Origin: a virus
Lineage: Duplodnaviria; Heunggongvirae; Uroviricota; Caudoviricetes
DNA: 48,302 bases
Direction: 5' to 3' (one strand)
Virus record (IMG/VR): IMGVR_UViG_3300045988_153358
In this document: positions 2,853 to 40,974 of the stretch, piece after piece
Position numbering within the stretch: position 1 is the stretch's first letter
Layout of the letters: every line of letters begins with the position of its first letter
Notes under the pieces: model-generated
Seen by the model: only the letters and a program-made list of their open reading frames with translations
The model's database searches: none
Told to the model about the DNA's origin: nothing
Translations under genes and position numbers: made by a program

Positions 2853-2928
2853 GGCCCCTTAGCTCAGTGGTTAGAGCAGGCGACTCATAATCGCACGGTC
2901 ATCGGTTCAAATCCGGTAGGGGCCACCA
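2853..2928 (+). tRNA. tRNA with anticodon CAT (Met elongator type, or Ile if lysidine-modified), includes 3-prime CCA
   Basis: cloverleaf folded by hand: 7-bp acceptor stem GGCCCCT/AGGGGCC, D-arm GCTC/GAGC, anticodon loop CTCATAA, T-arm ATCGG/CCGGT with TTCAAAT loop. Confidence 0.85.
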
Positions 2929-3236: not shown

Positions 3237-3824
3237 ATGGAGGCAATTGCATTGTTTAATCTGATTTATGCAGATCCCCCCTGGGAATACAAAGATAAGT
3301 GTAAGGATGGGAATCGTGGAGCTGGTTTTAAGTATCCAACGATGAAAGCTGAGGATATTGCTCGTATTCCTGTCTGGCAGCTTGCTAATCCTGAATCGTG
3401 TTTGTTGGCCATGTGGTGGGTTCCGACTCAGCCAGAAGAAGCGTTGCTGGTGGTGAAAGCATGGGGATTCAGGCTTATGACCATGAAGGGCTTCACATGG
3501 AACAAATGTGGTAGCCGACAACCAGATAAGCTGGTGATGGGGATGGGGCATATGACTCGTGCAAACAGTGAAGATTGCTTGTTTGCGGTAAAAGGCAAAT
3601 TGCCGACCCGCCTTGATGCGGGGATCATTCAGTCGTTTACATCGCCTCGTCTGGAGCATTCTCGGAAGCCTGATGTGGTTCGTGACAAGCTGGTAAGGCT
3701 GTTAGGTGATGTTCCTCGTATTGAGCTGTTTGCTCGCGGTGATTTACCTGATGGTTGGCATGGCTGGGGCAACCAGTGCAATGGAGGTATCCAGTTGCAT
3801 GATGCTCTCTGGCAAGTGGCATAG
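3237..3824 (+). CDS. MT-A70 family N6-adenine DNA methyltransferase
   Basis: DPPW catalytic motif (IYADPPWEY). Confidence 0.8.
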   Translation: MEAIALFNLIYADPPWEYKDKCKDGNRGAGFKYPTMKAEDIARIPVWQLANPESCLLAMWWVPTQPEEALLVVKAWGFRLMTMKGFTWNKCGSRQPDKLVMGMGHMTRANSEDCLFAVKGKLPTRLDAGIIQSFTSPRLEHSRKPDVVRDKLVRLLGDVPRIELFARGDLPDGWHGWGNQCNGGIQLHDALWQVA

Positions 3825-5751: not shown

Positions 5752-5985
5752 CGCATTACAGCAGCTCTTGTGCTAATCAGGGGCTGCGATAATGCGCAAA
5801 CCAAAGCTGCCTCATTAACTCCAGCTCGCTGTGGAGTTAATGCTGGTGGCTTTTTTATTACTGGAAGGTGGGCGACCGCCGTCAGTTGCGACCTGACGAC
5901 AGTCATTCATACCCACAGGGTGCCGTGGATACAAACCGAGGCCCACTTGCTTGCACAAGCGAGGGGATTTTAGCGGATAAACGGC

Positions 5986-6609
5986 ATGACAAAACATCTT
6001 AATGTGGTTTCTTTACCACTTTCTGTGTTGATTGGTTATGAAAAGAACGCTCGCACACACTCCGTGGAGCAGGTAGATCAGATTGTTGCCAGCATACAGG
6101 AGTACGGATGGACTAATCCGATCCTGATAGACGAGAACAACGTTGTAATTGCTGGTCATGGTCGAATTGCTGCGGCCACTCAGTTGGGGATGGATGATGT
6201 TCCCTGCATTGTTCTGGCTGGGCTAACGGAGAATCAGAAGAAGGCATATCGTCTGGCCGACAACCGTATTCCGCTGAATGCTGGTTGGGATGAAGAGTTG
6301 TTAAGCGCGGAGCTTGCAGATCTTGCGGCCGATGATTTTGCTCTGGACTCAATTGGTTTTACTCAGCGCGAACTGGATAACTTATTGAGTGCGGCGGTCT
6401 ACGATGACACAGAGGGTATGGATATCCCATTTGAGAAGGATGAGGCCAAATCAGGCGTAAAAGTTCAGTACCTGTCATTTGGAGGTCATAAAATCCCGGC
6501 AACGGATGAGGAAGCGGATCGTTTTGACTGCGCGGTGTCTCGTTATGTTGATGATAATGGCAGCTATATCGGATTTGTATCCGCATTGCTGGCTGGGGAG
6601 GTGTGCTGA
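5986..6609 (+). CDS. ParB-like nuclease domain protein (copy 1)
   Basis: ParB N-terminal domain motifs (IAGHGR, KKAYRLADN); paralog of 9275-9865. Confidence 0.75.
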   Translation: MTKHLNVVSLPLSVLIGYEKNARTHSVEQVDQIVASIQEYGWTNPILIDENNVVIAGHGRIAAATQLGMDDVPCIVLAGLTENQKKAYRLADNRIPLNAGWDEELLSAELADLAADDFALDSIGFTQRELDNLLSAAVYDDTEGMDIPFEKDEAKSGVKVQYLSFGGHKIPATDEEADRFDCAVSRYVDDNGSYIGFVSALLAGEVC

Positions 6610-7982
6610 TGCTTCACCTGAATTACGACATAACGCACCTACGCGGCGCGGAATATAACCCGCGTTTTATCGGTGAGGATGATCTTGCGAGGCTGGCGGA
6701 AAGCGTCAGGGAGCTGGGGCTTGTGAAGCCATTGATAGTGCGCGGCGATTTGCTGGTGGCGGGACACCAAAGGACGAAGGCGCTACGTAAGTTGGGAATA
6801 ACGCGTGCTGCGGTGTATGTGTTGCCCTGTGAAACGACGGTATACGACGAAGTACGGTTTAACCAACTGCATAACGGAACGGATTTTGATAGCGGAGATG
6901 AGCGTTGCAGGGTGTCCGGTCTGGAAGATAAGCATGGTTTTGTTCAGGTATCGGCAAGCCAGATCTCAGGCAATATGCGCGCGAAAATGGCATATGTTCG
7001 AAAGAACATAGCGGAACTGGTTATCAAGTATGGTCCGTGGGGTGGTTGTGTTGCTACTCAGTCTGGTGAGGTTATTCACTGTGCTCAGTATGCATTAGCA
7101 GCGAAAATGACGCGCACACCGCTAACGGTGTTTGTGATCCCTGATGTTGAGAAGGAAAAATACCAAAGTTATCTGAATAAAACTTATGGTGTATTTGAGT
7201 ATTCTCATCTGGAGAAAACAACATACATCCAGACGTATGCGCAGCTTATGCGGTTGCGTAATGGTGGCAGCCTGAAATCAAACCTGTATGAGTCGTTGAT
7301 CCTCCCGATCATTGCCAAGACGCCAAGAGGAATTGATTTTGGTTCGGGGCAGGGAGACTACGCGCGAATGCTCAGGGCAAAGGGATATAACCTGCATGAT
7401 CTCGAGCTTTTCCGCCGTAAGGGCGCTGGAAACACTCTGGATAGGACCGCAACAAACCGGATGATTGATACGCTGGTGGACGACTTAAAAACGCGAGGGC
7501 GTTACGACTACGTGATTTGCGATAGCGTTTTGAACTCGGTCGATAGTGTCGAGGCTGAATGGTCTGTTCTGACGGTTCTGAAAGGCCTGTGTAAAGCTGG
7601 TGGGTCAATATTCTTTTCTGGTCGTAGCCGTGGAGAGCTGGAAACAGTCCTGAAGCAAACACAAGCGGCGAGTTCCAAAAGCCGGCTTTATTTTATTGAT
7701 CATAACGGTTTTACCGCGTTGTACCGGAAGGGGCACTGGTTTTACCAGAAGTTTCACTCTGATGATGAAGTGAAGCAGTTGTGTCGTGTACATGGTTTCA
7801 GGATTAAGCGGTCAATATTCAACTGTAAGAGCTGGTATTTGCACGTCATTAACGATGATTCCCTTAGTTGGGCGAGTCTGGAGAAAGCTGTTCGTTTTGA
7901 GTTTGAGTTGCCGTTGCCTGGTGGTTCAACAATCGGACGATCTGATGATGTGCTGGCGGCTTTCCGGCCGCTGATTAAGTAG
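6609..7982 (+). CDS. ParB-like N-terminal domain fused to a class I SAM-dependent methyltransferase-like domain
   Basis: N-terminal LVAGHQR ParB-like motif; downstream DFGSGQG, DYVICDSVL and LCKAGGSIFFS resemble methyltransferase motifs I-III; no DPPY/NPPY motif. Confidence 0.6.
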   Translation: MLHLNYDITHLRGAEYNPRFIGEDDLARLAESVRELGLVKPLIVRGDLLVAGHQRTKALRKLGITRAAVYVLPCETTVYDEVRFNQLHNGTDFDSGDERCRVSGLEDKHGFVQVSASQISGNMRAKMAYVRKNIAELVIKYGPWGGCVATQSGEVIHCAQYALAAKMTRTPLTVFVIPDVEKEKYQSYLNKTYGVFEYSHLEKTTYIQTYAQLMRLRNGGSLKSNLYESLILPIIAKTPRGIDFGSGQGDYARMLRAKGYNLHDLELFRRKGAGNTLDRTATNRMIDTLVDDLKTRGRYDYVICDSVLNSVDSVEAEWSVLTVLKGLCKAGGSIFFSGRSRGELETVLKQTQAASSKSRLYFIDHNGFTALYRKGHWFYQKFHSDDEVKQLCRVHGFRIKRSIFNCKSWYLHVINDDSLSWASLEKAVRFEFELPLPGGSTIGRSDDVLAAFRPLIK

Positions 7983-7998
7983 TGTGTAGGAGGCGCTG

Positions 7999-8718
7999 GT
8001 GGCTGACAGAATTGAGATAAAGATGGATTTTTCTTCTCAGGATATTCAACGGCAACTCCAGCGCATTGAAGAACGCGAATTGCCGTTCGCAATGGCGCTT
8101 ACAGCAACCAGAACGGCAAAGGCTTCTCAGGCTGCGATTAAGGATGAAATTAATCGGGTATTTGACAGGCCCACGCCGTGGATTCAGAACTCTACTTACG
8201 TTTTAGCCGCAAAGAAGAGTGATCCTACAGCCATTGTGTATGCTCGTGAATGGGGTGGAACGCCAGCCCCTGTAACGTTGACTCCGCAAATCGAAGGCGG
8301 CCAACGACAGTACAAACGCTCAGAAGGGGCGCTAAGGGCTGGTGGATATTTGCCTAACGGCTGGCAGCTTGCTCCTGGTCCCGGCGCAAAGCTGGACAAA
8401 TACGGGAATATTTCGCGGGGGCAATTACAGCAGGTCTTATCTGGCCTAAGAGTTCAGCGAGATGCGCATCAAAATCGCCGTCAGGGCAAGCCTACGGAGT
8501 TTTTTGTTGTTCGACCTGGTACAAGTAACCCGCTTCAACCAGGCGTCTGGCAGCGCGTTGGGCGGCGTCCTACGTTGATCCTTACGTTCATCCAGCAACC
8601 TAACTATTCGCAGCGTCTTGATTGGCATGGCGTGGCGCTGCGTGCTGGTGAGGATGCGTTTGCTGATGAAGTCACAAAGGCTATTGATGACATCCTTTCT
8701 AAGACGTTCTCTCGTTAA
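7999..8718 (+). CDS. hypothetical protein (239 aa), GTG start
   Basis: ORF track; TAGGAGG Shine-Dalgarno. Confidence 0.55.
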   Translation: MADRIEIKMDFSSQDIQRQLQRIEERELPFAMALTATRTAKASQAAIKDEINRVFDRPTPWIQNSTYVLAAKKSDPTAIVYAREWGGTPAPVTLTPQIEGGQRQYKRSEGALRAGGYLPNGWQLAPGPGAKLDKYGNISRGQLQQVLSGLRVQRDAHQNRRQGKPTEFFVVRPGTSNPLQPGVWQRVGRRPTLILTFIQQPNYSQRLDWHGVALRAGEDAFADEVTKAIDDILSKTFSR

Positions 8719-9274
8719 TCATCGTGTGGTTGATGGTGTTGTTATGCAGGGTGTATTCACTGTGTTCTGTAGCGTCGCTCGCTGGCTGTCTGTGGGGGAG
8801 CACGAGCATCGTTTCATCGTCCGGCAGAATTGGGTCCTTCTGGCCAAAAGCGTTGGATGCGGGTCATTCGAACCCCGATATTCGGCTAGCTAAACGTGAA
8901 AAAAGTTAGGTTAAAAGTTGCGGTAAAAGAAATTTACTCATCTCATTGAAAAATATCGGGAAAACGTGATTTTTTCTGTATTTGTGCTGGTAAAAAGAAA
9001 GTGGAAAATTTTCTTTTAGATCATCAAGATACGCGCAGATCTTTAACCAATGTGATGTTGTTCTGATAAAAATCGTTATAAATCATGCAAATACATCCAA
9101 TCTTTTAACCAAAACACCATCGCAAGATCCTTTTTACTTATAAAAACTTAATAAAATCAGATAATTATGCTGGTTTGTGTGATTTTTCATGAGTAAAAAG
9201 ATCGTCATTTTTCTCTTTTAGTATCAATAAGTTAAACAGTTTTCTTTAACCTGTTGTGTTATGGCGGTTAAAAA

Positions 9275-9865
9275 ATGGCTCTAAAAATCGAATATTTACC
9301 AGTCGGTAAGTTGCTCAGATATGCCAAAAATTCACGGACTCATTCAGATGAGCAAGTTGAACAGTTGGTGAACAGTATCCGTGAGTTCGGTTTCACTAAT
9401 CCTGTGCTGATCGATGAAAAGAATGAACTGATTGCGGGGCATGGGCGGCTTGCAGCAGCCGAAATTCTGGAAATGGATAAAGTTCCGGCGATTCGGTTGA
9501 GTAACCTTTCTGAAAAACAGAAGAAGGCTTACAGGATTGCAGATAACAAGCTGGCTTTAAATGCTGGCTGGGATATGCAGCTTCTGGCCGAAGAAGTCAA
9601 AGAGTTAATGGATGATGATTTTGATATTGATCTGCTTGGGTTTAATGATGCAGAGCTTGACGAAATGTTAAGCGATGAACAGCCGCAGGAAGAAGACGAT
9701 AATTCTTCCCCTGTTGTTCAAATTAAGTACCTGGCTATTGATAAAGAACGTATTCCCGCGACGGATATGGAAATTGCATTGTTGCTGGATGTTTATCGTC
9801 AGTACCACGACGCGCATGAAACGCATGAGGGATTTGTTCAGTATCTTGCTAATGGTTGCAAGTAA
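9275..9865 (+). CDS. ParB-like nuclease domain protein (copy 2)
   Basis: same motif layout as 5986-6609 (NSRTHS, IAGHGR, KKAYRIADN, LNAGWD). Confidence 0.75.
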   Translation: MALKIEYLPVGKLLRYAKNSRTHSDEQVEQLVNSIREFGFTNPVLIDEKNELIAGHGRLAAAEILEMDKVPAIRLSNLSEKQKKAYRIADNKLALNAGWDMQLLAEEVKELMDDDFDIDLLGFNDAELDEMLSDEQPQEEDDNSSPVVQIKYLAIDKERIPATDMEIALLLDVYRQYHDAHETHEGFVQYLANGCK

Positions 9866-10416
9866 TGGCCATCGTCAGTAAGTCAGAGTTTGCCCGCCGG
9901 AAAGGTATTTCTCCGGCAATGGTTACGAAGCTCTGTCGTTCCGGTCGCATTCCAGTGCTGAAAAGCGGCAAGCTGGATTTTGATAAAGCCAGTGCGGCTT
10001 ATGAAGCGAGCCGACAGGTTGGTCGTGAGGTATCTGCTGAAAATGGAAAAAGAGGGCATGGGATATCTTCGGAACAACCAGAGTTACCCGCTGATGATGC
10101 CGGATTAGCTGGTGGTACTTCCGGTGTTGCGGTGCAATTCAACAAGGCTAAGACCGCAGAAAAAATTTATCAGGCAAAGCTGAAACGCCTTGAATTTGAA
10201 GAAAAGGAAGGCTCTCTCATCGCTAAAGATGCGGTCAGGGATGATGCATTTCTGGCAGCTAATGAATTGCGTAGCCGCTTATTTAGTATTGCTCCAAGAG
10301 CAGCTCCCCGTTGTGAAGGCAAAACAGCCAGGGAGATCGAGCGCATTATTGAAGACGAGATTAATTTTGCGCTTCAGGCGCTCCAGGAATCCCGATTTAT
10401 TAAGCAGGAAGAATAA
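9865..10416 (+). CDS. terS: terminase small subunit
   Basis: N-terminal HTH-like SKSEFARRKGIS motif; directly upstream of TerL; ATG overlaps upstream stop. Confidence 0.65.
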   Translation: MAIVSKSEFARRKGISPAMVTKLCRSGRIPVLKSGKLDFDKASAAYEASRQVGREVSAENGKRGHGISSEQPELPADDAGLAGGTSGVAVQFNKAKTAEKIYQAKLKRLEFEEKEGSLIAKDAVRDDAFLAANELRSRLFSIAPRAAPRCEGKTAREIERIIEDEINFALQALQESRFIKQEE

Positions 10417-10421
10417 ACCTC

Positions 10422-12278
10422 ATGGGCGAAACAGTATGGAGCACCGCTTTTTTCCGTGCGCTTCGCCCTAAATCACGGCTAACTGTTTCCGAATGGGCTG
10501 ATAAGTATCGTCATGTAGCGCCGGGAACGTCTCCAGAGCCAGGGCCGTGGCGTACAAGCCGAGTGCCATATTTGCGTGAACCAATGGATGTTATTGGTGA
10601 CGCTGATACAGAAACAGTAGTGATGCAATGTAGCTCGCAAATTGGTAAATCCGAATTACAGCTAAATGTTATGGGTTACTTTGCAGATCAGGAGCCATCT
10701 CCTCAGTTGATGATTTATCCAACGGTAGAGGCGGCTGAGGCTTTTTCAAAAGAGCGTATTGATCCGACGTTCAAATATTCCCCTGGTTTGAAACACAAGC
10801 TGCATGAAGGGAAAGAGGGGCGCGGTGCAGCCAAAAAGTCCAGCACGACTATACGTATGAAGCATTACGCTGGTGGATATATAGCACTTGTTGGTGCTAA
10901 TTCCCCAGCAGGTCTTGCATCCAGGCCAATTCGAATACTGTTAGCTGATGAGATTGATCGTTACGGTGTGACGCAGGAGGGCGACCCACTAAAACTAGGT
11001 ATTCAGCGTACTACCAACTTTCATAATCGTAAGAAAGTTTTTGTTTCTACTCCTGTTTTGGAGGAAACAAGCAAAATCCACAAGTGGTTTAAGCTCTCCG
11101 ATCAGCGTTACTACCATGTTCCTTGCCCATGTTGTGGCACCATGCAGGTGATGAAATGGTCGCAAGTCAGATGGGATAAGAGCGATTCAGGTGAGGCGTT
11201 ACCGGAAACGGCCAGATATGAGTGCTGTGAGTGCGGCGGGATTATGCGCGGATCTGGTAAACCAGACGTTGATTGGTTGGCGAAGGGGGTATGGATAGCT
11301 GAACATACTGGAGTTAAAGGTATTGTTGGTTTTCATATTAACAGTCTTTACTCCCCGTGGGTTGCATTGTCAGAGCTGGTTGAAGAATTTACGGAAGCAA
11401 CCAGAAACCGCGATAAAAATGGATTAATGGAGTTTATTAACCTTAAGCTGGGTGAGCCATGGAAAGAGGATGCTAAAGACGATATCGATCCTGAATACTT
11501 GTTGCAACGCAGAATAAGGTTTGAAGAGTTTTTACCAGATGATGTTTTATTGTTAAGTGCTGGTGTTGACGTACAGGACACGTATTTAGTTTGTGAATTG
11601 GTCGGTTGGGGAAAAGGTAAGGAGTCATGGGGGATAGAATATAAAATATTCCCAGGTGATCCCGCACAAGATGTTGTCTGGAAACAACTTGATGAATACT
11701 TACTCCGTAGCTGGTCATTCCGTGACGGTCGAAAATTACAGATTTCTTCCGTTTGTATTGACTCTGGTGGGCATTTTACGACAGAGGTATATCGCTTTAC
11801 TAAGCCGAGAGAATCAAGGCGAATATACTCTATCAGGGGGCGTGGTGGGGTAGGTTTACCATTTATAGGAAAGCCAAGTAATAATAACCGTGTGGGTGCT
11901 ATGTTGTTTAATTTGGGGGTTGATGATGGTAAAGGGACCATCATGGCAAGAATTAAACTACATGATCCTGGTCCTGGTTATATGCATTTCCCATTAGATT
12001 CTGACAGAGGATATGATACCGAATACTTTAAAGGATTATTATCAGAGAAAAAAATATTTGAATATAAAAATGGGCAGACAAAAGAAAAGTGGGTGAAAGT
12101 CTACGAGCGTAACGAGCCTCTTGATTGCCGTAACTATGCAACTGCCGCGATGGAAATTCTGAACCCTAATTTTAACTGGCTTGCCGAACAGGAAATGCGA
12201 GGTAATGTGTATGTGCAGAACTCGTCAGGTATACGTAGAAGACGCCGTAGAGTTATAAGTAAAGGCGTAACCATATAG
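10422..12278 (+). CDS. terL: terminase large subunit, lambda GpA-like
   Basis: 618 aa; GpA-family N-terminal pattern (TVSEWADKY, PGPW, PYLREPMD); gene order. Confidence 0.85.
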   Translation: MGETVWSTAFFRALRPKSRLTVSEWADKYRHVAPGTSPEPGPWRTSRVPYLREPMDVIGDADTETVVMQCSSQIGKSELQLNVMGYFADQEPSPQLMIYPTVEAAEAFSKERIDPTFKYSPGLKHKLHEGKEGRGAAKKSSTTIRMKHYAGGYIALVGANSPAGLASRPIRILLADEIDRYGVTQEGDPLKLGIQRTTNFHNRKKVFVSTPVLEETSKIHKWFKLSDQRYYHVPCPCCGTMQVMKWSQVRWDKSDSGEALPETARYECCECGGIMRGSGKPDVDWLAKGVWIAEHTGVKGIVGFHINSLYSPWVALSELVEEFTEATRNRDKNGLMEFINLKLGEPWKEDAKDDIDPEYLLQRRIRFEEFLPDDVLLLSAGVDVQDTYLVCELVGWGKGKESWGIEYKIFPGDPAQDVVWKQLDEYLLRSWSFRDGRKLQISSVCIDSGGHFTTEVYRFTKPRESRRIYSIRGRGGVGLPFIGKPSNNNRVGAMLFNLGVDDGKGTIMARIKLHDPGPGYMHFPLDSDRGYDTEYFKGLLSEKKIFEYKNGQTKEKWVKVYERNEPLDCRNYATAAMEILNPNFNWLAEQEMRGNVYVQNSSGIRRRRRRVISKGVTI

Positions 12279-30541: not shown

Positions 30542-31158
30542 TGGCATTCAGAATGAGTGAACAATCACGTACCGTAAAAATTTATAACCTGCTGGCCGGA
30601 ACTAATGAGTTTATTGGTGAAGGTGACGCATATATTCCACCTCATACAGGGCTGCCAGCTAATTCTACAGATATCGCCCCACCGGAAATTCCTGCTGGCT
30701 TTGTGGCAGTTTTTAACAGTGAAAATGAATCGTGGAATATTGTTGAAGACCATCGTGGTAAAACGGTCTATGACGTGGCGTCGGGGGACGCATTGTTTAT
30801 TTCTGAACTCGGACCGCTACCAGAGAATGTCACCTGGTTGTCGCCAGCAGGGGAGTATCAGAAGTGGGACGGCGTATCCTGGGTGAATGATGAGGAAGCA
30901 GAAAAACTGTTTCGGATACGGGAAGCGGAAGAGAAAAAGGCAAGGTTGATCCAGGAAGCAACAGATAACATCGCAATTCTGCAGGATGCAGTTAATCTTG
31001 AAATAGCAACAAACGAGGAAAATTCACAACTGGATTCCTGGAGAAAATACAGAGTATTAGTGAGTAGAATTGACACCAGTACAGCTCCGGATATCGTATG
31101 GCCAGAGCTGATGAATCAGGGTTATGTTCGGGAGGACGAGCAGATAACTTCAGACTGA
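30541..31158 (+). CDS. tail fibre assembly protein
   Basis: 205 aa directly after tail fibre gene; typical N-terminal pattern. Confidence 0.8.
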
Positions 31159-31685
31159 AATTTAGTGATGAATGTTGAATCATCAGGAATATCATGCAAT
31201 ACCAATGCATGAGCACCTATTGTGACATTGTTTCCTATACGCACTTTGCCACCAAGAATGGTGGCATTACAACCAATGGTCACATTATGCCCTATAACAA
31301 TATCCATATCATTAAATTCCCCGCGAAGTCCAATAGTTACTCCGGGCTTAATTGAACAATTTTCACCGATTGTTACTTTGTGACCGATAACAACACTGTT
31401 GAGATAAGAAATATCAAAGCCTTTCCCTATATTTACAGTTAAAGGGACTGTTACATTATATTTATCAAGAATGAAACGTTCTATTTTTCCCGCAATCTTC
31501 CGACAGTATCCGCCTTTATCAAAAAGGTATTTGGCTATGCGCCACCAAAATAAATAACGAACCCTTCTATGTTTTATTGCGCGAACAATTGCCTTTCGCC
31601 AGGAGAAAGGACGCTCGCTACCGATTACTTCATAGTGAATACAGTCTTTAAGTTCATTAATATTCATATCTTTATTATTCAGCAT
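31122..31685 (-). CDS. hexapeptide-repeat acyl/acetyltransferase (left-handed beta-helix family)
   Basis: repeated [LIV]-G-x-x-x-x hexapeptides ([43 protein letters not shown]). Confidence 0.75.
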
Positions 31686-32155
31686 AAGATAATCATGTGA
31701 CCAATTATTGTAATAATTTTAATGGTATGTTTCTACTGGCTATCCAGCGTGTCTGATATCCAGTAACAAATCGTCAACACGGGTGCAATCAAATGGTGAG
31801 TGTTAAGACTGACCACTTATTACCAGGTATGAGTGGCCAGCATTAAATCAGAACAGCCCTTTAACTGAACTGGCCGCGCTGTTAAGGGATGATGTCACCT
31901 TATCTTTGAAGCCGGACAGCATATTGCTGAACGATGAGTTTACCGCAGGTTTCTGGCTGGGAATCATTGACTGGAGTTAGGCCAGTAGTATGATGCTCGC
32001 AAAACGAGATCCAATTTAGATCCTTTTACTGGTGGATTATCGTTCGATCAGTGAGAGACTTCGTGCATGACCGAAAGTGTTGTGGTAGAGTTCTCTTAAA
32101 ACCACGTAACGTGGTTATGATTGTGGGTGTCTGGTTGGAAAGTGACCAGATATGG

Positions 32156-32268
32156 AAACAAAAAGCCCGCAGATAAATCTGCGGGCTTCTTGCGACATCC
32201 ACGGAAAACCAACAATTAACCATGGGCGCCTCGACAACTCCCATTATACGTTGGTTTTCCGTGGACGC
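32156..32268 (-). ncRNA. candidate CopA-like antisense RNA region for repA control
   Basis: 16-bp perfect inverted repeat 32198-32213 / 32250-32265 with about 36-nt loop; 10-bp hairpin 32163-32188 followed on the minus strand by a U-run. Confidence 0.45.
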
Positions 32269-32280
32269 AAGAGCGAACAT

Positions 32281-33129
32281 ATGGATAGACCAATGCCGTC
32301 TCTACGTTCAGCTTACGTTTGTAATTTGTCGCCGGAGTTCCAGCGTCCAAAGCACCATACGCACAAGCTGCCGCTGGTGTTATCTGATGCTTTACAGCGC
32401 ATTAATGGGCGTGATCTTACGTGTGAGGTTGCGTTCTACGTTAATCAACCGTCAGAGCGGAAGCGCCGGATAAACGAGCATCGTCGTCGGGCGATTAATG
32501 CTGTGATCGCTGCGATTTTGCACCATGTAAACATCATTTCTAAGCGGGTTCTGGCTAGTGCTGAGGCGTTGGCTGATTTTTGCGGCCTGTCTACCGTATC
32601 CGAAGCTGGGAACAAGTCTATAACGCGCTGTACAAGGGCGTTGTCGCAACTGAAAGCGTTAGGTTTTATTGATTATGAACGTCGCTGGGATCGGGTGAAT
32701 AAACAGTATTGGCCAGCGAAAATAGAGATTCGTGATCAACTGCTGGAAACCGTTGGTATTACTGAACAAGCATGGAGACGTGCGGTTAGCCAGAAACTTA
32801 ATTACTTCAATGCGAAGAATAGCGAACGGCTTAAAAAAGCGATAACGGAGGCTGATTATAAGCGTATTGTTATTCAGGAGCAGATGGAGAATGTATGGCG
32901 TCAGAGGAAGACGGCCAGAGAGATAAAGGCAAAACAGAAAGCAGCGGAGAGAGCTGCGCGTCTTGTTCGGGAAAAGGGAGAGGCCGAACTTCGTCATCAA
33001 ATCACCAGAGAGGTTAGTCAGGAATTTGCTGATGGCATGTATCCTGGTGCTGACCTTGCATATTTACGATCCCTCGTTGAGCAGCGTTATAACAGGTTAA
33101 GAAAGACCTGGAAATCACTCCAACATTAA
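32281..33129 (+). CDS. repA: plasmid replication initiator RepA, IncFII RepA1-like
   Basis: central region (GLSTVSEAGNKSITRCTRALSQLKALGFIDYE) closely resembles R100/R1 RepA1; ORF extends upstream to 32152 but that stretch holds the stem-loops. Confidence 0.75.
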   Translation: MDRPMPSLRSAYVCNLSPEFQRPKHHTHKLPLVLSDALQRINGRDLTCEVAFYVNQPSERKRRINEHRRRAINAVIAAILHHVNIISKRVLASAEALADFCGLSTVSEAGNKSITRCTRALSQLKALGFIDYERRWDRVNKQYWPAKIEIRDQLLETVGITEQAWRRAVSQKLNYFNAKNSERLKKAITEADYKRIVIQEQMENVWRQRKTAREIKAKQKAAERAARLVREKGEAELRHQITREVSQEFADGMYPGADLAYLRSLVEQRYNRLRKTWKSLQH

Positions 33130-37494: not shown

Positions 37495-38694
37495 TTATGG
37501 TCTGCTCTTCTGTGCCAGCTTATCAGCACATGTTTTTATCAGATCCTGTAGTGTCCTGGCTGGCAGGTTTGCATCCAGTACGCTGAGTATGCTGTTGTGA
37601 TCTGCTTGGTCGACTACTTTGCCTGTCGGTGGTAGTAGCTTGAGCTGAGGATTCAGGTTTTCGTCAAAGCTGATAAGTGCTCTGGCGTTTCTGAGCAGAT
37701 CAAGAAGTAAGGCTGATATCACATTTTCCTGAGTCATTGCTGACAGATTTAGCGCCGCTTTGGTTTTCCCTGTTGCCTTGTCAAACTCCTTGATTAGTTC
37801 CTTCCTGTAGTTCGGTTCCGTTAATAGCCGATTATGCTCTGTTGCCGCGCGGATAATCGTTTTTTCCTGGTACAGTCGTTTAGCCAGATCACGCTCGTAC
37901 TGTGTTTTTAACACGCTGCTGATAGCGTTAAAGGCTTCAATGTAGGCCAGCTTGATATCTTTCACGCCTGGACCGTCGATACTTTCCATGAGCAAGGTAA
38001 ATCCGTCTTTTGTCATGCGATAGATTGTTATTTCGCGGTCGCTTCCTTCCAGCGGTCGTTGCTCTTTAAAGAAATGACGTGCCGCAGCTGTGCGAGGAAT
38101 GCGTAACGCATCGATGGCCATAACGATGGAATTGTTTGTGGTGCTGAATGCCTGGGCAACATCGGCTGAGGTTGTGAGTGGCTCGTTGTTGCACACCTTA
38201 ATGTAAAACATCGGTTTGGCGTTGAGCGTATCGACAACCTCACGAGCATTGTTTGGCGAGACGGTTACGGTCGCGGCCGTTTGTGTGTTCTGGCTGAAAT
38301 AGCAGTCTTCCAGCCGTTCGAACACATCCCAAGCCTGATCGGTTTCAAGCATTTTGGCGTGACGTGCAGCCCCGCGTTCTGTCCAGAGAATGAGGGAGCG
38401 GGCTTTCGGGGAAATTTGTAACCCTCTTAAAGATGGTTGCACATTTTGTGAGTTACTTAAAGTAACCCGCAAATTTTGTGAGTGACTTAAAGTCACTCGC
38501 AAAGTTTTTAACTCATCGCCAGCCACTTTGAAAAAATGCTTTCCTTCAATAAAGCGGTTTGCGTTACGTGAGTAATTTTTTTTGATGTTATCAACGTCTG
38601 TGCCGTATAGCTTTGCCAGTAGTTCAGTAGTGATAACGGGGATCTGGTTATGCAGGATAGGCTGTAGGGTGTTAACGGTCGGAAGCGTTTTCAT
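37495..38694 (-). CDS. antirepressor-like protein (ORF6N/KilA-type N-terminus, Rha-like C-terminal part)
   Basis: ITTELLAKLYGTDVDNIKKNYSRNANRF motif; downstream of a small overlapping ORF and structured RNA region. Confidence 0.65.
   Translation of the reverse strand: MKTLPTVNTLQPILHNQIPVITTELLAKLYGTDVDNIKKNYSRNANRFIEGKHFFKVAGDELKTLRVTLSHSQNLRVTLSNSQNVQPSLRGLQISPKARSLILWTERGAARHAKMLETDQAWDVFERLEDCYFSQNTQTAATVTVSPNNAREVVDTLNAKPMFYIKVCNNEPLTTSADVAQAFSTTNNSIVMAIDALRIPRTAAARHFFKEQRPLEGSDREITIYRMTKDGFTLLMESIDGPGVKDIKLAYIEAFNAISSVLKTQYERDLAKRLYQEKTIIRAATEHNRLLTEPNYRKELIKEFDKATGKTKAALNLSAMTQENVISALLLDLLRNARALISFDENLNPQLKLLPPTGKVVDQADHNSILSVLDANLPARTLQDLIKTCADKLAQKSRP
38443..38502. repeat. two tandem 30-bp dyad-symmetric repeats inside the antirepressor gene
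   Basis: ATTTTGTGAGTTACTTAAAGTAACCCGCAA then ATTTTGTGAGTGACTTAAAGTCACTCGCAA; arms GTTAC/GTAAC versus GTGAC/GTCAC. Confidence 0.8.
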
Positions 38695-38882: not shown

Positions 38883-39046
38883 TGTGATGATTCCCTTAAA
38901 GGTTAAGGATACTCACCACCGTCAGGTTCCAATCATTGGGTGGTGAGACGTGCAGGGTTGGAACTACCGGACACAATGACGAACCGGCGAGTCTTACGAC
39001 TCCCCCGCACGCCCCACCATAATTTGGGTGTAGCAGTGCTTTACGC

Positions 39047-39150
39047 ATAAAAAAACCGCTAACGCGGTATGCGCCATTGTGTCTACGGGGTTCCAATCCC
39101 GACCGTAGATTTTGCTACGGCTCGGAAAGTGTCCACCAATGGCGCATTCA
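39047..39150 (-). ncRNA. candidate c4-like antisense sRNA (5-prime end not determined)
   Basis: minus-strand hairpin ACCGC-GUUA-GCGGU plus U7 at 39049-39068; stem CCGUAG/CUACGG; GAUUGGAACC element repeated in the leader at 38925-38936 and complementary to 38954-38964. Confidence 0.35.
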
Positions 39151-39638
39151 TGTCAATACGGCGGGATTTTAACAGAGACAACCACATAGCGTGGGTTTAT
39201 TGGTAGGCAGAAACAAAAAAACCGCCCTATTGAGGACGGTTCTTTCGTGCTGATCGGATTCGCGGTCCTTTCAGCATAACGTCGTTGTATAAACAACCAC
39301 GCAAGCACAAGCAGCAAGTTAATTTTACCCAAAAGGTAATAATAGTCCACTATTATGCTTCAAAAAATTGTGGTTCTTGTTGTGCCTGCAAACTCACAGA
39401 TTGTGGGTAGGTTACTGATTTTGTGAAAATAAACGAGTTTTTTCGTTTAATTTCTTTCCTATTACTAATCTTAAAATAATCGTAAAATACCTGTGGACCT
39501 TCCCGCCGATTCGCACCCGGGCACCGACTTTAGGGGAGGATTCTCCGTTGCCGTACATGCAAGCACAAGCAGCCGTGCTTGCTCTCGCGTTGTTTTCGTC
39601 GGTGGGGATGCCGTGAAACGGCCTGTAAGGGCCATACA

Positions 39639-39761
39639 ATGAAAAAATACTGTATGTGTATTTTTATCGTTGTTACTGGGGCTTTGTTTACGCCACATGG
39701 GGAGGGTTGGAAGATTACTGATAACGCTCTGAATGTGACGATAAACATTAGCAGCAAGTAG
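39639..39761 (+). CDS. possible small hydrophobic peptide (40 aa)
   Basis: AAGGG Shine-Dalgarno 8 nt upstream; translation MKKYCMCIFIVVTGALFTPHGEGWKITDNALNVTINISSK; strong terminator follows. Confidence 0.3.
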   Translation: MKKYCMCIFIVVTGALFTPHGEGWKITDNALNVTINISSK

Positions 39762-39766
39762 CGATT

Positions 39767-39790
39767 AGGCCCCTTCGGGGGCCTTTTTTA
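39767..39790 (+). terminator. Rho-independent terminator with UUCG tetraloop
   Basis: AGGCCCC-TTCG-GGGGCCT followed by TTTTT. Confidence 0.75.
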
Positions 39791-40010: not shown

Positions 40011-40259
40011 TTACTTCTGGTTGTATTGAGCCTTGAGTAACTCAAAAGATTTTGTCAGCACTTCTTTCAATGACATATCCATTGAGCTGGCGAACGTTTT
40101 GTACTCGCGTTTAAATTCAGGGTCGACGTTAAACGCCATTTGTGCCCCACCTGATTTGGTTCTGGTTGGCGTTTCAGTCGGGTCGAAAACCTGCGGTTGT
40201 TCGATCGATGGCGGTACGCCTTTGCTGTTCTTCTTTGGTGGTTTTGATGGTCCGGCCAT
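40011..40259 (-). CDS. ParG-like ribbon-helix-helix partition/centromere-binding protein
   Basis: 82 aa; disordered basic N-terminus, C-terminal RHH-like segment; adjacent to ParA. Confidence 0.55.
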   Translation of the reverse strand: MAGPSKPPKKNSKGVPPSIEQPQVFDPTETPTRTKSGGAQMAFNVDPEFKREYKTFASSMDMSLKEVLTKSFELLKAQYNQK

Positions 40260-40302: not shown

Positions 40303-40956
40303 TTACGCGGCAGTAGTCAGAGCCTCAAGCTGGTTGATAATCCCCTGAATAACGTCGTCTGCCTTTTTGCGTGGCGCAACGTATGAGCATTCAATGAGGC
40401 TTAAGCCCTTATCCTGAGCTTTGCTCAGAGCTGGCTTGTGGGGAATGTACTTATCGACAACAAAGTATGGCGTATTAGCCAGGTACTCTTGGGCTTCAAT
40501 GTAGTCGGCTTCGTTTTCAGCCGCGCCTGAGAACACCATGCAAATTTTCTTGATTGGCACACCCTTTTTAACGATGCCGTGAGCTGTGTTAACGGTGGTT
40601 TCTAGGTCATCGGTAGAGAATCTGGTTGGCAAAATAACCATATCCAGAAATTCAGAGAGCTTCGGTACTGATTCAGATGCGTAGGCACCGCCATCGACGA
40701 TAACCAGGTCGTATACTTCTGATTCGATGATTTTCTGGACTTGTGATGGCGTGCCGCACGGCTGCGCCGCGATTGCAGGTTCGATATTGTTGGCCATTCT
40801 GCGTTGTACCCAACGCGTTACCGTTCCGTTAAGCACATCCATATCGATCAGGCATACATTCCAGCCGGCCTTTGCATAAGCAACTGCTAAAGCACGGGCA
40901 ATTGTTGATTTGGTTACGCCGCCTTTTCCGTTGAAAATACCTACAGAGATAGTCAT
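40303..40956 (-). CDS. parA: ParA/MinD-type partition ATPase
   Basis: deviant Walker A GIFNGKGGVTKST; start at second ATG chosen because of GGAG Shine-Dalgarno. Confidence 0.8.
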   Translation of the reverse strand: MTISVGIFNGKGGVTKSTIARALAVAYAKAGWNVCLIDMDVLNGTVTRWVQRRMANNIEPAIAAQPCGTPSQVQKIIESEVYDLVIVDGGAYASESVPKLSEFLDMVILPTRFSTDDLETTVNTAHGIVKKGVPIKKICMVFSGAAENEADYIEAQEYLANTPYFVVDKYIPHKPALSKAQDKGLSLIECSYVAPRKKADDVIQGIINQLEALTTAA

Positions 40957-40974
40957 TTGTCGAGACTCCATGTG

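Follow-up and report, generated by a model that had tools for sequence, protein, structure and literature searches.

Genes upstream of the terminase

The DNA analysed here (the window) is the whole stretch of 48,302 nucleotides (nt) in IMG/VR record IMGVR_UViG_3300045988_153358, a virus of the class Caudoviricetes. The locus under study, 5986-9865, contains two ParB-like genes (ParB-A and ParB-B) and a gene for a ParB-methyltransferase fusion, and lies directly in front of the genes for the small and large terminase subunits (terS and terL). An earlier note, based on the letters of the sequence alone, described four genes at this place as one cluster. All four open reading frames (ORFs) were found, and the adjacency to terS and a gpA-type terL, directly after ParB-B, was borne out, but only ParB-A and the fusion form a conserved cassette. 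The features of the locus are as follows:

5986-6609, plus strand: ParB-A, a partner-type ParB/Srx protein and first gene of the cassette (phrog_620, E 4e-74; positions 11-210 of 218 of the partner hidden Markov model, HMM)
6609-7982, plus strand: the fusion, 457 amino acids (aa) from its ATG, with ParB_N at residues ~1-94, a conserved middle domain at ~95-225 and a class I S-adenosylmethionine (SAM) methyltransferase at ~226-457
7999-8718, plus strand: P239, a 239-aa protein and last gene before the probable cos site (phrog_1924 'minor tail protein', E 1e-96; HK97 gp10-like predicted fold)
8856-8879, no strand: cosN-like conserved core, which contains the predicted cohesive end of 12 nt, GGTCATTCGAAC (8862-8873)
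8881-9274, no strand: AT-rich YTTTAACC repeat array, with copies at 8909-8916 (minus), 9041-9048, 9103-9110, 9244-9251 and 9266-9273 (minus)
9275-9865, plus strand: ParB-B, the second partner-type ParB and first gene after the probable cos site (phrog_620, E 5e-75; partner HMM 14-210 of 218)
9865-10416, plus strand: small terminase subunit terS (phrog_57, E 7e-42), whose RefSeq start is the ATG overlapping the ParB-B stop codon
10422-12278, plus strand: large terminase subunit terL of the lambda gpA type (GpA_ATPase, E 7e-76; GpA_nuclease, E 1e-84)

Pairing of ParB-A with the fusion

The TGA stop codon of ParB-A overlaps the ATG of the fusion (TGATG, 6607-6611). The conservation of this arrangement was surveyed in 80 viral contigs carrying a fusion homologue (32-100% identity), 68 of which had at least 700 nt of upstream sequence. 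A ParB-like ORF of ~200 aa on the same strand ended within 500 nt upstream of the fusion in 55 of the 68 loci, and it overlapped the fusion ORF in 43 of these 55. The remaining 13 loci had an ORF of 150-276 aa at the same place, which was missed by Pfam and was assigned to the partner family by hhalign (probability 98-99.8%). A partner-family ORF was present directly upstream of the fusion in all 68 testable viral loci. Judged by gene order and overlap, ParB-A and the fusion are an obligate, translationally coupled pair. The pair was also found in Bradyrhizobium chromosomal prophages and in metagenome contigs, and Bacteroides phage BS-TP3, which has an annotated integrase, carries the order ParB, fusion, terS, terL. 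Five loci contain two tandem fusions, and both of those inspected (L077, L080) keep the partner ORF upstream.

The first large ORF 3' of the fusion was scanned in 49 loci, and about 33 of these ORFs had a terminase large-subunit domain (Terminase_6 in 13, gpA in 11, TerL in 5 and Terminase_3 in 4). Since four terminase families were found downstream, the placement in front of the packaging genes is common to unrelated types of terminase, and the cassette recurs at this position in phages of several bacterial phyla. Within the lineage of the window the cassette is accessory cargo, as indicated by its absence from close relatives. Twenty relatives with a ParB-B of 76-86% identity (L099-L103, L105-L118) keep the order P239, gap, ParB-B, terS, terL and have neither ParB-A nor an intact fusion. 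In the two cassette-less relatives inspected, other small genes occupy the stretch from the lysis genes to P239. Because P239, ParB-B, terS and terL are kept where the cassette is absent, the cassette is not required for packaging or virion assembly. In the near-identical clade of Escherichia coli plasmids, the cassette is fixed: a query with the cassette and a query with the terminase region each matched 62 PLSDB records.

Copy number and neighbourhood of the pair vary among loci. Tandem fusion copies, or two tandem partner-type ParBs before one fusion, were observed in L077 (6609-9341), L080-L082, L086, L084 (6636-7990) and L089 (2485-3818), which suggests dosage or hetero-oligomer variation in the module. 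In a Bradyrhizobium prophage (L005, 10879-17196), GGACT/AIG2-like proteins, an Amidoligase_2 protein and an MTS/N6_Mtase-like methyltransferase are encoded beside the pair on the opposite strand; these families are often tied to phage DNA or peptide modification systems.

The ParB-methyltransferase fusion

The earlier note had read the 457-aa protein as a ParB-like domain joined to a class I SAM methyltransferase lacking the DPPY/NPPY motif, and the ORF, its domains and the absence of the motif were all confirmed. In Pfam, Methyltransf_23 matched residues 231-398 with 32.6 bits (cutoff 27), and ParB_N matched residues 7-68 with 24.3 bits, just under its cutoff of 26.3. A profile of the fusion family also matched the Spo0J N-domain (6sdk, E 2e-8). 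The C-terminal domain has motif I and the acidic residue after strand 2 that characterise class I SAM-dependent methyltransferases, and its SAM-binding fold is intact.

A conservation alignment of 62 homologues was used to locate invariant residues in each part of the protein. In the ParB part these are R19 (YNPR), G52-H53-Q54-R55 and N85-Q86; in the middle domain R131, G142, G145, H157, Q160 and Y161; and in the methyltransferase motif I (D243-F-G245-x-G247), E266 and D305. Further invariant polar residues are R339, D364, Q380, H383 and E431. By predicted secondary structure, residues 110-190 show the same succession of strands and helices as the ParB domain (residues 2-90). However, an internal duplication was not supported by profile-profile comparison of the two segments (E 0.14) and is kept as a hint only.

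A sequence scan found neither a [DNS]PP[YFWH] nor a PC[QH] motif in the fusion, and the scans against Pfam and NCBIfam gave no match to the DNA amino-methyltransferases (N6_N4_Mtase, MT-A70, N6_Mtase). Similarly, the protein does not carry the combination of PCQ motif and PF00145 match that marks C5-cytosine DNA methyltransferases. Judged by these motifs and profiles, the chemistry is probably not N6-methyladenine (m6A), N4-methylcytosine (m4C) or 5-methylcytosine (m5C). The match of the fusion to the PADLOC model MTase_II is confined to the ParB part (residues 10-73), and the ParB module of MTase_II was all that PADLOC matched among known defence or anti-defence families.

The whole fusion (residues 1-457) matches positions 1-457 of 458 of phrog_5475 (E 1.6e-265), a family of unassigned function. 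At least 781 homologues were found, nearly all of ~460 aa, in Enterobacterales, Bradyrhizobium, Xanthobacteraceae, Hyphomicrobium and metagenomes. When residues 91-457 were searched against 1.84 billion cluster representatives, 420 clusters were obtained at E <= 1e-3; nearly all are 450-490 aa long, and the match begins at about residue 91-130. Since almost all of these clusters are full-length, the middle and methyltransferase parts essentially never occur without the ParB domain. The methyltransferase domain has no close relatives outside the fusion family: PHROGs gave its own family only, and the best match among PDB profiles was UbiG (E 7e-7). The earlier note was right that the sequence does not reveal which molecule accepts the methyl group.

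Relationship of ParB-A and ParB-B to phage DNA methylases

ParB-A and ParB-B are paralogues, as had been proposed, with 48% identity over 201 aa (E 5e-62), and both match phrog_620 end to end. Against Pfam ParB_N (PF02195) ParB-B scores 33.7 bits, above the cutoff of 26.3, and ParB-A scores 23.9, just under it; ParB-B also matches Helicobacter pylori ParB (4umk, E 1e-4). The two proteins carry the boxes N-x-R, GHGR and ADN, which correspond in an alignment to GERR and EN in Noc and ParB. The key residues of Boxes I, II and III are kept in ParB-A, ParB-B and the fusion, with Box II altered to GH(G/Q)R. Because the Glu of Box II is replaced by His in these ParB-like proteins, their hydrolysis of nucleoside triphosphates (NTPs) may differ.

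Partner-type ParBs, for which an HMM was built from 55 partner ORFs, consist of ParB_N, a helical linker and a C-terminal domain of ~50 aa with the pattern FG..vP.T.eE...GFV..L. In ParB-A the layout is an N-terminal nucleotide-binding fold, a helical linker, an acidic linker and the ~50-aa C-terminal domain. The N-terminal part is shared with DNA methylases. ParB-A and ParB-B match the N-terminal part of the PADLOC type II methyltransferase model MTase_II (E 3e-37 and 2e-40, respectively) and the N-terminal 150 aa of phrog_498 (E 4e-52). Distant relatives of 404-512 aa are 43-53% identical to ParB-A and ParB-B over the first ~150 aa, and all ten of these longer relatives that were tested are ParB_N + N6_N4_Mtase DNA methylases, which match the partner HMM only up to about position 156. 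In three relatives (L120, L123, L124) such a methylase lies directly upstream of terS and terL, in the slot of ParB-B. By sequence, therefore, ParB-A and ParB-B are the ParB module known from phage DNA methylases, in which a small C-terminal domain has taken the place of the catalytic domain. Partner-type ParBs with no fusion nearby were also found upstream of gpA-type terminases (L129, L132, L133). A homology search with ParB-B returned near-identical proteins only and added abundance alone.

P239, the cos region and ParB-B

P239, the protein of the four that had been called unknown, belongs to phrog_1924 and has a predicted HK97 gp10-like fold. It has no Pfam match, and its BFVD matches, most with weak E-values, include 'tail component', 'HK97 gp10 family' and 'Neck Ne1'. 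Distant homologues (28-40% identity) lie directly upstream of a Nu1-like terS and a gpA terL with no ParB gene there. By homology and predicted fold, P239 is probably an HK97 gp10-like neck or tail-completion protein, of a kind whose gene is by convention the last one in front of cos, and it is not part of the ParB-methyltransferase module. In unrelated phages the homologues in L091 (7001-7729) and L092 (7001-7747) are the last gene before terS and gpA terL, apart from other neck and tail genes.

The AT-rich gap of ~550 bp given in the earlier note is present (8719-9274, 555 nt), but only part of it is AT-rich. The first part, 8719-8880, has 54% GC, and the remaining 394 nt (8881-9274) have 29.7% GC, which places them in the lowest 0.08% of 394-nt windows. 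The gap contains no consensus promoter, terminator or Rfam family. Three independently deposited genomes, whose records are marked circular, have their breaks within the gap. The records of vB_YpM_39 and vB_YpM_41 have their last base at the equivalent of window position 8861, and that of vB_YpM_39 opens with GGTCATTCGAAC followed by CCCGAT, that is, at the equivalent of 8862. The record of vB_YpM_44 ends with GCGGGTCATTCGAAC (8873) and opens with CCCGAT (8874). From the 12-nt offset between the deposited termini and the gpA-type terminase we infer a 12-nt cohesive end at 8862-8873, so that the gap holds a probable cos site. The core GGGTCATTCG(A/T)ACCCCG is kept in L018, where the fusion is 70% identical, while the flanks diverge.

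The AT-rich part contains five of the eight matches of the window to YTTTAACC, within 365 nt. In L018 the variant TTGTTAACC has 10 matches, nine of them in the equivalent gap (10289-10776) against 0.18 expected. By this clustering, 8881-9274 is a real array of repeats of the protein-binding type. The array may, by analogy, consist of cosB-like terS sites; ParB-B is the other candidate binder. The repeat motif differs between these related phages, as expected for co-evolving protein-binding sites.

ParB-B is separated from the cassette by P239 and this region. Its stop codon overlaps the ATG of terS by one base (TAATG, 9863-9867), an arrangement that couples it translationally to terS, and it is kept together with P239, terS and terL in relatives without the cassette. 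ParB-B is a resident core gene of the lineage and not a flank of the cassette, so the idea that two ParB genes bracket a single cluster does not hold. Its probable role is at the repeats close to cos, or in concert with another enzyme.

The window as a phage-plasmid

The window of ~48 kb is a complete temperate myovirus-like phage-plasmid. Positions 5900-9900 match plasmid NZ_CP064105.1 at 100% identity, and Yersinia phages vB_YpM_39, vB_YpM_41 and vB_YpM_44 and E. coli phage vB_EcoM-613R2 at ~99%. In PLSDB, 293 plasmids, chiefly of E. coli and Yersinia, have parts of the window backbone in common. No integrase was found among the window ORFs scanned. Neither the phage-plasmid status nor a ParA of the element's own had entered the earlier account; a RepA and a ParA are both present in the window. 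Features outside the locus include:

2853-2928, plus strand: tRNA-Met (CAT), after the lysis cassette and before the MT-A70 gene, where the variable cargo region begins
3237-3824, plus strand: MT-A70 family DNA adenine methyltransferase (Pfam MT-A70, E 3e-23; PADLOC MTase_II, E 2e-68; DPPW at residue 13)
31122-31685, minus strand: hexapeptide-repeat acyltransferase gene, just after the tail-fibre genes
32152-33129, plus strand: IncFII-type RepA
37495-38694, minus strand: ORF6N/Rha antirepressor gene, with C4 and isrK upstream
38936-39024, minus strand: C4 antisense RNA (Rfam)
39049-39121, minus strand: isrK (Rfam)
39493-39789, plus strand: ryfA (Rfam)
40011-40259, minus strand: 82-aa ORF after ParA, which looks like a small centromere-binding protein and is probably the partner of ParA
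40303-40971, minus strand: small ParA ATPase, 222 aa
44871-45992, plus strand: 373-aa protein with a DUF3560 domain, in the early region

Every gene is on the plus strand between the start of the lysis cassette (1029-2559) and the end of the head genes. The MT-A70 gene lies in the same variable cargo region as the cassette and co-occurs with it in close relatives only (L096, L097, L104, L119); no match to it was found in the cassette-less relatives. The acyltransferase may be a lysogenic-conversion gene for surface modification. The arrangement of C4, isrK and antirepressor resembles the immI immunity region of P1 and P7. The element was not assigned to the SSU5 supergroup, the group of pSLy3, whose members, at ~100 kb, are much larger than the element in the window.

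Possible function of the cassette

Our favoured reading, which is held tentatively, is that ParB-A and the fusion form a two-component, nucleotide-gated, ParB-activated DNA-modification module that is expressed late and works on phage DNA before packaging. ParB-A would dimerise through its C-terminal domain, engage the ParB domain of the fusion, and then load the fusion on double-stranded DNA or activate it there. The methyltransferase would mark progeny DNA, and the mark would shield this DNA from host nucleases in the next cell. The module is favoured because of the obligate pairing, the homology of the partner to the ParB module of DNA methylases, the slot shared with them, the cargo-like distribution and a precedent among dioxygenases. 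It has been reported that the phage thymine dioxygenase 5mYOX176 needs a ParB-like activator, ParB176, for activity on double-stranded DNA (PMC13229309). DNA modification or anti-restriction, among the roles first suggested for the locus, is still leading, while packaging, another of them, is unlikely for the cassette and possible for ParB-B.

Several observations weigh against such a module. Only a handful of cultured phages carry the fusion family. Partner-type ParBs are also found without the fusion, so their basic function is independent of it. The Pfam and NCBIfam scans found no helix-turn-helix or other DNA-binding domain in the three ParB-like proteins, the fusion lacks the DPPY and PCQ motifs, and a position beside terS is equally compatible with other roles. 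The strongest objection is that the catalytic domain resembles a small-molecule or tRNA methyltransferase and that no DNA-binding domain is visible.

For these last two reasons a non-DNA substrate is a serious rival, although we regard it as somewhat unlikely. The fusion would then methylate a protein of the terminase, virion or host, an RNA or tRNA, or a nucleotide or other small molecule, and the ParB/Srx domains would be NTP sensors or substrate-binding modules. However, the partners share homology with the ParB module found in true DNA methyltransferases, the type of genomic slot used by the cassette is used by DNA methylases in related phages, and the functionally tested phage ParB-like partner works on a DNA-modifying enzyme (PMC13229309).

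A more specific proposal, which we consider unlikely, is that ParB-A and the fusion together are an NTP-gated, DNA-loaded methyltransferase installing a DNA mark other than m6A, m4C or m5C. Candidates for the methylated site are another base position, a pre-existing hypermodification or the backbone. The two ParB/Srx domains, together with a possible degenerate third in the middle region, would form a clamp enabling activity on double-stranded DNA. If this were true, phages of Pseudomonadota, Bacteroidota and Bacillota would share a new class of DNA-modifying enzyme.

It is similarly unlikely that the ParB-like proteins are packaging accessories that recognise or organise cos or pac or regulate the terminase, like the HNH proteins that go with HK97-type terminases, with the methyltransferase tuning the packaging site. 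In loci with four different terminase families the genes do lie immediately in front of terS and terL, and ParB-B overlaps terS by one base, follows a repeat array beside cosN and is core in the lineage. On the other hand, ParB-A and the fusion are missing from close relatives with a terL scoring ~88%, phages with the same layout of P239, cos, Nu1 and gpA carry no ParB gene, and gpA has a nuclease domain of its own. Nothing relevant was found in the literature on a packaging role of ParB-like proteins. A role in packaging is unlikely for the cassette and possible for ParB-B alone.

There is a still smaller chance that the ParB-like proteins travel inside the capsid and enter the cell with the DNA to act early against its defences, like DdrB/DarB of phage P1. 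Their genes belong to the late region, with head and neck genes as neighbours, and Iyer et al. described DdrB-like ParB domains that are encoded next to virion genes and incorporated into P1 heads (PMC5512222). However, a Pfam scan found no MuF, peptidase or other hallmarks of polyvalent proteins, and no homology to the DdrB-like ParB clade turned up, although no comparison was aimed at that clade.

Finally, it is very improbable that the plasmid prophage uses the ParB paralogues as its partition proteins, even though the element is a phage-plasmid with an IncFII RepA and a ParA ATPase and one published annotation names them 'partitioning protein ParB', because it has its own 222-aa ParA, followed by its own 82-aa ORF that is probably the centromere-binding partner, while the ParB-like genes are 30 kb away among late genes with no adjacent parA, score 29.8, 40.1 and 16.4 bits against the TIGR00180 cutoff of 58.45, have no helix-turn-helix match in Pfam and no [LFI]G[KR]G[LFI] ParA-binding motif (for which reasons a canonical ParABS identity was rejected), and the same pair occurs in a Bradyrhizobium chromosome, in the integrase-annotated phage BS-TP3 and in many viral contigs.

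Comparison with known systems

The packaging region resembles that of phage lambda (cos, Nu1, gpA) in its gpA-type terL, in a terS with an N-terminal helix-turn-helix-like match, and in an inferred 12-nt cohesive end within a conserved GC-rich core, followed by AT-rich short-motif repeats before the packaging genes. It differs in the extra gene, ParB-B, between the repeat region and terS, and the ends are placed here from deposited records. The repeat region of ~390 nt is also longer than lambda cosB, which is ~120 nt.

The ParB_N + N6_N4_Mtase methylases (phrog_498, PADLOC MTase_II PDLC03229) are like ParB-A and ParB-B in the N-terminal ~150 aa (43-53% identity) and in their slot before terS and terL. 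Unlike them, ParB-A and ParB-B lack a methyltransferase domain and carry the family-specific ~50-aa domain at their C-terminus, and the methyltransferase of the fusion belongs to a separate class I family that is not an amino-methyltransferase.

Fusions of a ParB-CTPase fold with Methyltransf_23 (PF13489) were described by Hocher, Le and co-workers (2025, PNAS; PMC12704722) in a survey which, in the part drawn on here, reports them as enriched in phages and prophages with no function assigned, and some bacterial ParB-SAM-methyltransferase fusions as binding ATP. These phage- and prophage-borne proteins share the domain pair and the family (phrog_5475) with the fusion in the window. The architecture is already catalogued (phrog_5475; PMC12704722), and dozens of RefSeq plasmid records contain exactly these proteins. 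In contrast, the obligate partner ParB, the middle domain and the position before the terminase are not described in the part of the survey used. The present analysis adds that the partner gene is obligate, that the three-part architecture is fixed, that the pre-terminase position is conserved across phyla and that the cassette is accessory; it also adds the local map with a probable cos site, repeat array, probable neck protein and ParB-B coupled to terS. In the literature on the closest phages nothing was found that characterises the cassette genes.

The closest parallel with a tested function is 5mYOX176 with ParB176. In both cases a separate small ParB-like protein accompanies a phage DNA-modifying enzyme, or a candidate for one, and the partner, by its published description, has a nucleotide-binding domain joined by a linker to a C-terminal domain, with no DNA-binding domain (PMC13229309). 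ParB176 is needed on double-stranded DNA and shows cognate specificity (PMC13229309). The enzyme there is an Fe/2-oxoglutarate dioxygenase, whereas here it is a SAM methyltransferase with a ParB domain of its own. ParB-like proteins are emerging as general switches, gated by nucleotides and reused by phages for DNA modification, and the cassette is a compact and widespread case in which a non-canonical methyltransferase is always accompanied by a ParB partner. Since it is carried by a phage-plasmid present in dozens of sequenced E. coli plasmid records, it is easily testable; its substrate, once identified, could reveal a new anti-restriction mark, and, as with 5mYOX176, the system could show how ParB-fold partners activate enzymes on DNA.

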